Shown piece after piece: positions 49,801 to 55,506 of a DNA stretch of 64,000 nucleotides (positions are counted from its first letter, which is position 1; every line of letters starts with the position of its first letter). Both the position numbers and the translations under genes were made by a program. This DNA is from Dictyostelium discoideum (Eukaryota): positions 5,792,001 through 5,856,000 of the forward strand of contig CM000151.3 in the NCBI GenBank assembly GCA_000004695.1, read 5' to 3'. The notes beneath the pieces were generated by a model that did no database searches, was not told where the DNA came from, and saw nothing but the letters and a program-made list of their open reading frames with translations.

Positions 49801-51021
49801 GAATACATTGAAGGTTCCACATCTATTTCAGACCTAATAAAAAAAAAACCAAATAATAGATTTGAAGAGGAAGAAATAAAATCTTTAATGATTAAAATTG
49901 TCAAAGCGCTAAGTAAAATTCACGAATCAGGTGTTATTCATCGTGATATTAAAAGTGATCACATCATTTTGGCTCAAGATAAAAATAATGAAACCATTGT
50001 AAAATTCATAGATTTTGGATTATCAAAACAAATTGAAAAGAATTCAAAGTATTATTCATTTGTAGGTACAGATTCACACATGGCACCAGAAGTTAAATTA
50101 CAAAATGGTAAAGCAGGTAGTAAATCCGATATTTTTTGTATAGGTTGCACAATGATTGAAATGGCTGGTTTGAATTTGTGCCATTCTGAAAGAGATGATA
50201 AAGGTATACCCTCAATACCAACACACCTATCCAATTCATTCAAAAATATAATTCAAAATTGTTTAAAGTTTGACACAAACGCTAGGCATAGTGTTGAAAG
50301 TTTAATTATTACCTTGTCTAATGTAAGGGTTAAATATAAATTACAAAGAAAGAAACCCATTCTAATTTTTTTTTAAAAATTTGTAAAAAATTTTATCTAG
50401 ATTCAAATTGAAGGCGATTCAGTATTTGAAAAGTATTTATCACCAAATTTAAAGAAATTAGAATTAAAAACCAATGAACCAATTTTATTAGGATCAATTG
50501 GTAATGAAATAAACTACCTTTCATTACCAATTTATAACCAAATGATAACACCAGGAGCTTTACCACCATCTGTTCAATATCTCTTATTTAATAAATTAAA
50601 TCAATACCTTGAATGTGATTCAATACCAGAATCAGTTAAATATTTAGATTTAGGTAATGAATTTGACATTGAAAAAAATGGAATTAATCTTTCAAACGAA
50701 TCAATATTAGTACTTAGATGTGGTTTTAATTTTACACAACCAGTTAGCCAAAGACTCCTACCTTATTCTGTAACAGATTTACAATTATACAACTATAATA
50801 TTAATTTAAAAAGAAACAGTATTCCAACATTAGTTACATCGCTCACTCTTGGTTCAAATTTCACAAACATCGAATCCCTTTCATTTCTTCCCGAAAATGT
50901 CAATAGTTTAGCAATAGGTATTAAAGATGAAGATGAAAAACTAACCAAAGAAATAGAAAAAATAATACAAACAAAAAAAAGCATTACCTCCTTTAAAATA
51001 AATGGAATACAAAGAAATTAA
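46829..51021 (+). CDS. FNIP-repeat protein containing two tandem protein-kinase modules (first degenerate/pseudokinase, second catalytically intact); exons 46829..47998, 48076..49620, 49693..50322, 50401..51021
   Basis: Four blocks of 22-aa FNIP repeats (…LSSYNQLLTPGTLPNNVKYLDLSSYN…; …SFNHPL…, …TFNQPI…). Module 1: WEII, but with no Gly-loop or VAIK, HFDIKCQNILI (HRD to HFD), GFD in place of DFG, retained HMAPEIK and SDIWSLGCTLIE. Module 2: GSGNFGKVF, CAIKK, HRDIKSDHIIL, DFGLSK, HMAPEV, SDIFCIGCTMIE. Introns: GTAAGC (47999)…AG (48075), 77 nt; GTATGT (49621)…AG (49692), 72 nt; GTAAGG (50323)…AG (50400), 78 nt. All are phase 0, and the ORF is continuous between kinase 1 and kinase 2. Confidence 0.6.
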
Positions 51022-51230
51022 TAAATTATTTAATATTTATTTATATTTTTCTTTGTTTTTTTTAAAATTATTTTGATGAAAAACTAACGTAATAAATAGA
51101 AAAAATAACAAAAACAAAAAAAAAAAAAGTATTACCTCTTTCAAAATAAATGGAATACAAATAAATTAATAAAATTATTTAATATTTATTTATATTTTTC
51201 TTTGTTTTTTTTTAAAATTATTTTGATTTT
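50981..51230. repeat. ~110-bp tandem duplication covering the 3' end and stop of the FNIP-kinase gene and its 3' flank
   Basis: aaagcattacctcctttaaaataaatggaatacaaagaaattaataaattatttaatatttatttatatttttctttgttttttttaaaattattttgat (50981..51085) is repeated with 3 substitutions at 51118..51225. Confidence 0.7.
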
Positions 51231-52030
51231 AAAATTAAATGTTTATCAATTGGTGAAAGTTTTTGATAATTATGAGATTGCATTATAAAGGATGGACTTA
51301 AAAATAAAACATTTGGATATTTTTGTTTTGTAATATCAAATAAACGATCCCATACAGTTTTATCAGTGATAATAAATTTGGTTGAATTTGTTGGAATTGA
51401 AGAAATTGAACCTTTATATGCTGTAATTAAACGAACAATATTCTTTCTTAAAGCTTCATCTTTTACGCTAAGATAAAATTCAAATCCCTCAAAAAATGAT
51501 GGAAGTGGATTTAAAATATCTAAATTGAAAGAAGAAAAAAAAAAAAAAATTAGATACTAAACTTTTTGAATTATAAAATATAAATATTATTTTAAACTTA
51601 CATTCTTTGCCCTTAAAATCGTGTGGGTTATTCTTTGGTAATTGAGTTGAACATTTTTCTGGAATAATAGAATCTTTGACTTGGTTTTTATTTGTAGTTG
51701 ATTGTGATGATTGTTGTGATAGTGATGATTTTTTACTATTGCCTTCCAAATAATCGTCAGTTGTTGATTTATTTGGAGAAGTTGGTCCATTTATTGTTGA
51801 TTTATTATTATTCTTACTATTATTTTTATTATTGCTGTTTTCATTATTTTCATTATCATTGCCATTATTATAATTATTTACAAGTCTATCAATTTCTTCT
51901 TTAATTTGTTCAGGTGTCATTAATACTGTATCATGATTATCAAATAATGAATCATCATCAAATTCGTCAAGTTTTTGTTGTTTTGGTTTATATGAAATCT
52001 TTTCTTCTTTTTCTTTTTTATCTTTGTTTT

Positions 52031-52062
<32 letters not shown>

Positions 52063-52937
52063 GTTGTTAATTGGGATTCATCATCATTATCATTATTATT
52101 TGTTTTATTCTTACTGCTACCGCTACTACTACTATTACTATTATTATTATTATTATTATTATAATCATATTCTTCATTATAATATTTGTTTGGTTTATAA
52201 GAAGGTGAAGATTTATAAGTATTATTATTATTATTATCAGATGAATGATGATTTTTTTGTTTTTTATGATATGGATTATGTTGAATTAAATCTCTATCAG
52301 GTTTATAACCATAAGTTCTTTTTAAATAATCCAAACCATCATTTAAGAGATCATCAACATTTTCATGAACATGATCATCCAAATGATCAGGATCTTTTTC
52401 TTTATCATCATCGGAAGCTTCAGATGAAGAGAAACTATTATCAATGAAACCATCATTGTAATCATAAACATTTGGTATATGACTATCATCATCACTATCA
52501 TCTGAACCTGGTGCACCTTTCTTTTTTCTTTTTTTACTTGTTGAATCTGTACTAATGGTTTTCTTTGCTTTTTTAGCTGATGCTATCTTTTCTGCTATAT
52601 CATCTTGTTGACCATCACTATCACTATGGTCATCTTGGAATGTATAGTTTTTAATTGGTAATCTTGATTTCAATTTATAACAATCTTCAATCCATTTTGG
52701 TTTAATTATTGAACCACCTGATTTTTGTGCAATTTTAAATTTATCTGTACCCCTAAATGGTGTCACTAGATGAGTTGCCTCTCTACACCAATCTGGTTTA
52801 TATCCAGCTCCCATCTCTAATGCTTTTTCACGAATTTCACCTCTTTGTGGATTTTGAATACCACCAATTACTAATACTACTCCTTTCTATATAAAGAAAT
52901 TTAAAAAAAAAAAAAAAAATTTAAAATTAATTATAAT

Positions 52938-52981
<44 letters not shown>

Positions 52982-53150
52982 TTTAATTATACATACTAAT
53001 AAATTACCGAATGGTGTTAATTTTTGTTGTTGTTTTGGTGTTGCAATAATTTGTAAATCATCACATTCTTCATCTGTTTCACCATCATTTGTATTTGTTA
53101 ATTTTTCTAATGATTTTCTATCAGTTGATTTAGTTTGATTTTCATTTTTA

Positions 53151-53188
<38 letters not shown>

Positions 53189-54253
53189 AATTTTAATATC
53201 TTGCATACTATCATCTTCATCACTTTGTTTTGGTTCAACTAATTTTGATTTTTGTTTTTGTTGTTGTGATGATTGTTGTGATGATTGTTGTGATGATTGT
53301 TTTTTTTGTTGTTGATCTAATTTTTTCTTAATTTCAATTTTCTCTTCTTCATCTTCTTCTTCAGTTTCAATTTCTTTTTCAGGTTCTTTATTTACACCTT
53401 TTGATTTTGATTTTTGATTAATAACTAAAACTTGACCAGGTAATGGATTTGATAACATTACAGTTGCAGATTTTGATAATTTCTTTGGTGTTGAAGAATT
53501 TGATCTCTTTAACTCTGGAATAAAGTTTAAAATTTGAGTTTTATCTGATTTCAATGGAATGTTTGGTTCAGATTCAAAACTTGTATCCATTAAATTTGAA
53601 GCTGATGTATCTGTTAAATCAATTTCATTGGAGATATCACCCAATTTCTCTGATTTTATTTGAGGTGTGACATTATTATTATTTGATGACGATGATGATA
53701 ATTTGGTTGTTGTTATTGTTGGTGTTGGTGTTGGTGTTGGTGTTGTTTTTGAAGGTGGTGCATAAATTTTAACTAATGAAATACCAAGATTATCATCTAA
53801 CCATGGTTGTGAACAAACAATTCTAACTCTTTCCCATTTTCTTGGTACTGTTTGTGATGAAAAATTACTAGTATTAAATGATTTCATACGATTTCTATTG
53901 GTTTTATTTGTAGTTTCACTTAGTGACATGAAATTGGTTAATGGTACCAATACTAAGAATTCTGTTGGCTCCCATGTAACTAATCCAACCAATACCTCTA
54001 TGAATGCTGATCCTGCATTTGTAATATCAATTTGATGAATTAAACTTGGTGTTGGAAATTGTAAATCTATAAATGCTTTACCTGTTTTATCTTTAGTTTG
54101 CCATATTCTATATGTATCATCCAATAAAACATTTGATGATTTATTATATTCACTCTCTGATGAACAACATGATACACTTAAATCAATTAATCTTGGTGGT
54201 TTTATTGGTGTTTGTGTCTGTACTTGTGTTTGTGTTATTATTTTTGTTGTCAT
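51218..54253 (-). CDS. xrcc1: XRCC1 homolog (DNA single-strand-break repair scaffold): N-terminal XRCC1_N domain, BRCT1 and BRCT2; exons 54253..52997, 52886..51602, 51519..51218
   Basis: The N-terminal domain aligns with human XRCC1: DTYRIWQTKDKTGKAFIDLQFPTPSLIHQIDITNAGSAFIEVLVG vs DTYRKWRAAKAGEKTISVVLQLEKEEQIHSVDIGNDGSAFVEVLVG, and RVRIVCSQPW vs RVKIVCSQPY. BRCT1 is KGVVLVIGGIQNPQRGEIREKALEMGAGYKPDWCREATHLV…W. A GTATGT donor (52996 down) and AG (52888/7) give a 110-nt intron containing (ATT)n. A GTAAGT donor (51601 down) and AG (51521/0) give an 82-nt intron leading into BRCT2 (FEGFEFYLSVKDEALRKNIVRLITAYKGSISS…KFIITDKTVWDRLF…). Phases match (0/0 and 1/2). Confidence 0.75.

Positions 54254-54611: not shown

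Positions 54612-55506
<895 letters not shown>

Follow-up and report, generated by a model that had tools for sequence, protein, structure and literature searches.

The locus described here raises the question of whether a Dictyostelium discoideum gene resembling that for the repair protein XRCC1 carries a second BRCT domain (BRCT2), and whether this domain lies on a short third exon that mechanical detection of open reading frames (ORFs) misses. We analyzed a 64,000-nucleotide (nt) stretch of D. discoideum DNA (contig CM000151.3, positions 5,792,001 to 5,856,000; hereafter the window), in which a sequence-only reading had placed a three-exon XRCC1 homolog on the minus strand. We found that this gene is very probably the D. 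discoideum XRCC1 ortholog, a three-exon minus-strand gene for a scaffold protein of 947 amino acids (aa) whose BRCT2 is encoded by the short third exon. Its exons and introns, in window coordinates, are as follows.

52997..54253, minus strand: coding exon 1, 1257 nt, phase 0, aa 1-419; encodes the XRCC1 N-terminal domain followed by the low-complexity linker 1 and, at its end, the opening 4 residues of the BRCT1 match.
52887..52996, minus strand: intron 1, 110 nt, GTATGT..ATAG, 4.5% GC, contains an (ATT)n run.
51602..52886, minus strand: coding exon 2, 1285 nt, aa 420 to the first base of codon 848; encodes BRCT1 and the long linker 2.
51520..51601, minus strand: intron 2, 82 nt, GTAAGT..TTAG, 12% GC, phase 1, with the Y848 codon split T/AT.
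51218..51519, minus strand: coding exon 3, 302 nt including TAA; remainder of codon 848 to aa 947.

Joining exons 54253-52997, 52886-51602 and 51519-51218 gave a single 947-aa frame with no internal stops (a spliced coding sequence of 2844 nt, that is, 947 codons plus stop). It starts with an ATG at 54253-54251 in an AAAATG context, ends with TAA at 51220-51218, and has an N-terminus (MTTKI..) common to orthologs. All coordinates proposed for the three-exon model proved correct, and reading frame, domains and comparative structure agreed with it. Both introns are short and extremely AT-rich, with the low GC contents given above compared to 24-28% in the exons; both have GT..AG ends, restore the frame when removed and occupy conserved positions, as Dictyostelium-type spliceosomal introns do. 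The intron that had been postulated to lead to the third exon, 82 nt long with GTAAGT..AG ends, was found at 51601-51520 with a TTAG acceptor. The mechanical ORFs do not follow this structure: the 438-codon ORF that begins at the start ATG enters the (ATT)n tract, and a second one (52814-51489) passes through intron 2 and ends in a poly-Phe tail, as had been noticed. The first splice site was fixed because the alignment with human BRCT1 runs ungapped over the exon 1/2 junction (FGNLL/KGVVLVIGG against LGKILQGVVVVLSG in the PDB sequence alignment).

Other candidates in this region were rejected. An alternative donor GT at 53007 would shorten exon 1 to 1246 nt, which is out of frame, and breaks the ungapped alignment with human BRCT1. 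Plus-strand ORFs over the gene (for example, 51914..52447) were found to be low-complexity mirror frames of the Asn/Thr/Ser-rich coding sequence and not genes. Simple-sequence tracts occur in intron 1, where the (ATT)n run occupies window positions 52940-52985, and in the coding linkers as poly-Asn, poly-Thr and Ser-Gln repeats (53140-53180, 52040-52080, 52130-52170 and others). In the protein alignment, the coding tracts vary in length among close relatives by indels of whole residues.

Pfam and PDB searches with the 947-aa product identified the following domains.

53765..54175, minus strand: XRCC1 N-terminal domain, aa 27-163; Pfam PF01834.
52677..53008, minus strand (span includes intron 1): BRCT1, aa 416-489; Pfam BRCT.
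51242..51508, minus strand: BRCT2 of XRCC1 type, aa 852-940; Pfam BRCT_2/BRCT.

All three were recovered by scans with the XRCC1_N and BRCT profiles. The N-terminal domain, encoded by exon 1, had been recognized from sequence as that of XRCC1; it scored 132 bits against a cut-off of 21 (Pfam E 2e-38), and its best PDB sequence match was XRCC1 (1xna/3k75, E 1.2e-26). BRCT1 (E 2e-21) had been assigned to exon 2, which holds for nearly all of it, but the Pfam match begins 4 residues earlier, with aa 416-419 on exon 1. The best PDB match for aa 414-513 was XRCC1 BRCT1 (2d8m, E 2.4e-25), followed by Rad4/TopBP1-type domains at 1e-10. For BRCT2, the Pfam BRCT_2 match covered aa 856-940 (E 1.8e-11), and the PDB search with the full-length protein returned XRCC1 structures 3pc6/3qvg/3pc8/1cdz at E ~1e-7.

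Exon 3 on its own gave a more specific result. At E<=1, the 100 residues from the junction onward had matches to four distinct PDB sequences and no others, each of them XRCC1 BRCT2 (4e-9 to 1e-8). An AlphaFold2 model of the 99 residues wholly encoded by this exon, built on an alignment of 23 sequences, had a mean predicted local distance difference test score (pLDDT) of 93.2 and the element order beta-alpha-beta-beta-alpha-beta-alpha, which is the BRCT fold. When this model was compared with the PDB using Foldseek, ranks 1-7 were all XRCC1 BRCT2 (E ~1e-9, template modeling score (TM) 0.87-0.91, root-mean-square deviation 1.2-1.5 A) at ~27-28% identity to the mammalian domains, and the next family, the PARP4 BRCT, was four orders of magnitude weaker (E 1.8e-5). 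The chance of a 99-codon open frame in DNA of 24% GC is ~1e-4, a rough estimate from base composition. Together with the conserved gene structure described below, these results agree with the assignment of BRCT2 to the third exon that had been made from the letters alone.

The gene structure was conserved in other dictyostelids. The closest database protein was a 948-aa 'hypothetical protein' of a D. discoideum assembly (ACTFIW_004797), 98% identical in the alignment, followed by proteins of D. cf. discoideum, D. citrinum, D. firmibasis, D. purpureum, Cavenderia, Acytostelium and Heterostelium, all with the same Pfam domain set. In an alignment of nine dictyostelid proteins, residues K844, G845, K846, E847, Y848 and I849 (KGKEY/I, the slash marking the junction), P852, L853, P854, F856 and F857 were invariant in all nine. 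When orthologs were mapped to their genomic loci, the position of intron 2 and its one-residue split were the same in D. purpureum (696/698), Cavenderia (660/662) and Heterostelium (736/738), and the position of intron 1 also matched in the mapped relatives, including D. purpureum and Cavenderia. Annotated orthologs (D. discoideum ACTFIW_004797, D. citrinum, D. firmibasis RB653_002461, D. purpureum DICPUDRAFT_79761, Cavenderia fasciculata, Acytostelium subglobosum and Heterostelium album) were 98% to 41% identical to the window protein and shared its domain order, two intron positions and junction residues, while the lengths of the repeat tracts differed.

The domain order is also the same as in human and mouse XRCC1 (PDB 1xna and 3k75; 2d8m; and, for BRCT2, 1cdz, 3pc6, 3pc8, 3qvg and 6wh1), and several functional residues of these proteins were found in the amoeba protein. 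Human F67, E69 and V86, which we take to be required for binding of DNA polymerase beta by the N-terminal domain, align to F84, E86 and V101, of which F84 and E86 were invariant in the nine dictyostelids. In the BRCT1 pocket that binds poly(ADP-ribose) (PAR), human R335 and K369 correspond to R434 and K468, so that two of three residues are kept, the third being human S328; K468 was invariant in dictyostelids, and position 434 was either R or K. Mammalian XRCC1 is recruited to breaks through this phosphate pocket, and the R335A/K369A substitution weakens recruitment (PMC4538820). In the mouse XRCC1/ligase III BRCT dimer, R562 and G569 are central interface residues (PMC3177190); they correspond to R877 and G884, invariant in dictyostelids, and R558 is replaced by Lys. 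The lead-in to BRCT2 (KGKEYILNPLPSFF), which shares the LPxFF motif of the mammalian proteins and straddles the splice junction, was the most strictly conserved linker stretch; in mammals, residues just ahead of BRCT2 favor the heterodimer with ligase III (PMC3177190).

These features suggest how the protein may act. At a single-strand break, ADP-ribosyltransferases would make ADP-ribose chains, and the protein would be recruited to them via the BRCT1 phosphate pocket (R434, K468). Through its conserved F84/E86/V101 face, the N-terminal domain would touch nicked DNA or a polymerase that fills the gap, BRCT2 and the invariant residues preceding it (KGKEYILNPLPSFF) would hold DNA ligase III, and phosphorylated T393 (T-D-E-E) may dock FHA-domain end-processing factors. 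Binding of PAR, DNA polymerase beta and DNA ligase III is predicted here by analogy with the mammalian protein and from the conserved residues.

Several observations weigh against our reading of the gene and its product. At the level of the gene model, the splice junctions, although very well supported, are predicted from consensus signals, homology and comparative conservation, and the ortholog gene models used for comparison are predictions themselves. The protein collection contained no exact entry for the 947-aa product or the 884-aa read-through protein, nor for the two raw ORFs or either neighboring ORF. At the level of function, some residues differ from their mammalian counterparts: the Ser of the PAR pocket is Gly in all dictyostelids (S328 to G427), the disulfide (redox)-switch residue C20 is replaced by K38, and the mouse BRCT2 interface residues N568 and E570 are replaced by K883 and S885. 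In addition, neither the window protein nor any of its five closest relatives has a T-[DE]-x-[DE] site between BRCT1 and BRCT2, as a scan for this pattern showed.

The BRCT-BRCT partnership with Dictyostelium ligase III is plausible and is predicted from the conserved interface residues. D. discoideum has been reported to possess both XRCC1 and a DNA ligase III, DDB_G0283857 (PMC8529158), and this ligase carries a macrodomain that is absent from vertebrate ligase III (PMC5087659, PMC8529158). An unlikely alternative is that the C-terminal BRCT is not mainly a ligase III anchor and may instead homodimerize or bind another partner, with ligase III reaching breaks via its own macrodomain. Mammalian XRCC1 BRCT2 also homodimerizes, with nearly the same hydrogen-bond network (PMC3177190), but none of the aligned dictyostelids departs from the central interface Arg and Gly, and the pre-BRCT2 residues that favor the heterodimer in mammals are likewise invariant in 9 of 9 sequences. 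The two changed interface residues (mouse N568 and E570) and the weak Pfam LIG3_BRCT match of exon 3 (E 0.15) are consistent with another partner, whereas the presence of BRCT2 tracks that of ligase III in plants versus animals (PMC6728418), and Dictyostelium has both. For the presence of XRCC1 and ligase III in Dictyostelium, PMC8529158 cites Pears et al. 2012.

The linkers may provide additional docking sites. Both are long and of low complexity and, as had been noticed for linker 1 (described as S/T/K/E-rich), biased in composition, with high contents of Lys, Ser, Asn, Thr and Asp. The amoeba XRCC1 (947 aa) is longer than the animal XRCC1 proteins recovered (~520-650 aa) because of these linkers. 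Two conserved islands were the following.

53063..53086, minus strand: linker-1 island DGETDEEC, aa 390-397; T393-D394 invariant in nine dictyostelids.
52428..52553, minus strand: linker-2 island STDSTSKKRKKKGAPGSDDSDDDSHIPNVYDYNDGFIDNSFS, aa 531-572; basic SKKRKKKG, acidic SDDSDDD and an invariant PNxYDxNDxFID.

Linker 1 had been expected to contain PAR-binding or phospho-regulatory motifs; the PAR pocket known from mammals lies in BRCT1, and DGETDEEC in linker 1 is a candidate CK2-type phosphothreonine or FHA-docking site. The basic SKKRKKKG cluster appears similar to a nuclear localization signal. Further islands conserved across Dictyostelia were VDDLLNDGLDYLKRTYGY (aa 596-613) and QIKEEI (aa 746-751), and invariant short linker motifs included DGLDYLKRTYG after BRCT1 and a T739-x-x-hydrophobic site. 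In vertebrate XRCC1, PNKP, aprataxin and APLF dock through their FHA domains on a CK2-phosphorylated S/T-D-E motif just before BRCT2. This S-T-D-E site is lacking in the amoeba protein, which has T-D-E-E before BRCT1 instead; this T393-D-E-E site was conserved in all sequences scanned. A T-[DE]-x-[DE] site was present ~35-40 aa before BRCT2, a position comparable with that of the vertebrate FHA-docking site, in D. purpureum, Cavenderia, Acytostelium, Heterostelium and EukProt P0009, so dictyostelids outside the discoideum clade keep a T-D-E-D/E site that the window protein does not have. This is a modest observation, but it suggests that the discoideum clade may have lost the canonical pre-BRCT2 FHA-docking site kept in other dictyostelids and vertebrates. 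A broader rewiring of partner docking in this lineage, in which FHA proteins (e.g., the PBZ/macrodomain protein APL) or the macrodomain ligase III would attach via lineage-specific linker motifs and not via the vertebrate sites, seems improbable to us.

A different alternative concerns the message: intron 2 might be kept or only rarely removed, the main product being the 884-aa read-through protein with its poly-Phe tail, devoid of BRCT2, and exon 3 remaining untranslated. We aligned the window DNA with that of four relatives (D. discoideum ACTFIW, D. citrinum, D. firmibasis and D. purpureum), with the following results for intron 2 and exon 3.

D. discoideum ACTFIW: intron 2, 78 matches, 0 mismatches, 4 gapped columns; exon 3 differences at codon positions 1, 2 and 3: 0, 1 and 1.
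D. citrinum: intron 2, 58 matches, 14 mismatches, 21 gapped columns; exon 3 differences: 3, 1 and 10.
D. firmibasis: intron 2, 36 matches, 36 mismatches, 21 gapped columns; exon 3 differences: 10, 0 and 15.
D. purpureum: intron 2, 40 matches, 27 mismatches, 21 gapped columns; exon 3 differences: 19, 14 and 43.

Across these relatives, intron 2 retained just its GT(A/G)GT and TAG ends and contained frame-breaking indels. In the three closest relatives exon 3 was free of indels, and differences at third codon positions formed the largest class (10 of 14 in D. citrinum, 15 of 25 in D. firmibasis and 43 of 76 in D. purpureum). Although the mechanical ORF does continue to 51489, four of the five genomes gave a read-through of 9-39 residues before a stop, and the tails were mutually unrelated, so it is very improbable that this is the main product; the canonical GTAAGT donor and TTAG acceptor, the 12% GC of the intron, the invariant junction residues and the confidently folded XRCC1-type BRCT encoded downstream all argue for removal of the intron and translation of exon 3. 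Least credible of all is that exon 3 stands outside the XRCC1 gene, as an open frame arisen by chance or the remnant of a different BRCT gene. It lacks its own start codon, and only ~200 bp separate it from a convergent gene, but its frame joins exon 2 exactly, its every PDB match is XRCC1 BRCT2 and a C-terminal BRCT of this kind is present in every ortholog.

Some variation was observed in this part of the gene. The intron 2 of D. discoideum ACTFIW (locus L004, 6668-6745) is 78 nt long and has no in-frame stop, so its retention would add 26 residues without cutting off BRCT2; in the window and three other species, translation would end within a retained intron or soon after it. An extra short intron was found inside the BRCT2 coding region of Cavenderia fasciculata (after aa 697; L001, 6531-6889) and Heterostelium album (~aa 773; L003, 5465-5820). 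Because it is absent from the window and D. purpureum, an intron was gained or lost within Dictyostelia. A Synstelium polycarpum protein (EukProt P0125, 1903 aa) matched only the first 40 exon-3 residues, at 65% identity, and is probably a fused or mis-spliced gene prediction.

We further examined the occurrence of this architecture in other organisms. When the exon-3 peptide was run in an exhaustive HMMER search of 1.84 billion representatives, 36 proteins, six of them dictyostelid, reached E<=1e-3. The best non-dictyostelid matches included a metagenomic 889-aa protein and the XRCC1 of Pelomyxa schiedti, a non-dictyostelid amoebozoan (KAH3767938.1, 769 aa, 33% identity over BRCT2), both with XRCC1_N and, as here, one BRCT in the center and another at the C-terminus. 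The remaining named matches, among those looked up, were all animal. Plant XRCC1 (Arabidopsis AT1G80420 and rice OsXRCC1) is also a scaffold with a central BRCT1 in base excision and single-strand break repair, but unlike the amoeba protein it has no BRCT2, which fits the lack of ligase III from plants (PMC6728418). XRCC1 itself is missing from fungi and C. elegans (PMC3969565). XRCC1 with both BRCTs had been described as uncommon outside animals, which is true with respect to plants and fungi; however, all sampled dictyostelid genomes, Pelomyxa schiedti and the metagenomic protein have the full architecture. It is therefore patchy outside animals and general in Dictyostelia.

The genomic neighborhood was partly conserved. 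The window and D. discoideum assembly GCA_054859355.1 are collinear, flanking genes included, with ~93-95% nucleotide identity. Upstream of XRCC1 lies an AhpC/TSA (redoxin-type) gene (window 54616-54783, minus strand; L003 1257-2710 and L004 2830-3651 in relatives), which was also found in D. discoideum, D. citrinum, D. firmibasis and even Heterostelium album; the AhpC/TSA-XRCC1 pair is thus conserved across Dictyostelia. Downstream is a convergent FNIP-repeat gene, the last coding part of which lies at window 50542-51021 on the plus strand (Pfam FNIP, E 4.8e-20) and which corresponds in GCA_054859355.1 to the gene for an FNIP-repeat protein kinase of 1405 aa; D. citrinum and D. firmibasis instead have an alanyl-tRNA synthetase-like gene as downstream neighbor. 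Between the convergent genes we detected a tandem duplication of ~148 bp (50929-51077 and 51075-51223) that spans the last XRCC1 codons with the 3' flank, as well as the FNIP-repeat gene on the plus strand at its 3' end. Of the two copies, the one closer to XRCC1 has diverged and contains stops. In the related D. discoideum assembly this unit occurs once (L004, 7039-7187), and only ~50 bp lie between the ends of the two genes.

Dictyostelium XRCC1 is already known as a gene, its presence together with ligase III is stated in the literature (PMC8529158), and the BRCT2 exon is already part of the publicly annotated gene in related dictyostelid genomes, so the finding is an ordinary one and carries little weight as a discovery. 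Its practical value lies in a checked gene model with exact junctions for an organism that is an established model for ADP-ribosylation-dependent repair, and in a shortlist of residues and motifs (R434, K468, T393, R877 and the KGKEYILNPLPSFF lead-in) that may be considered for mutagenesis.

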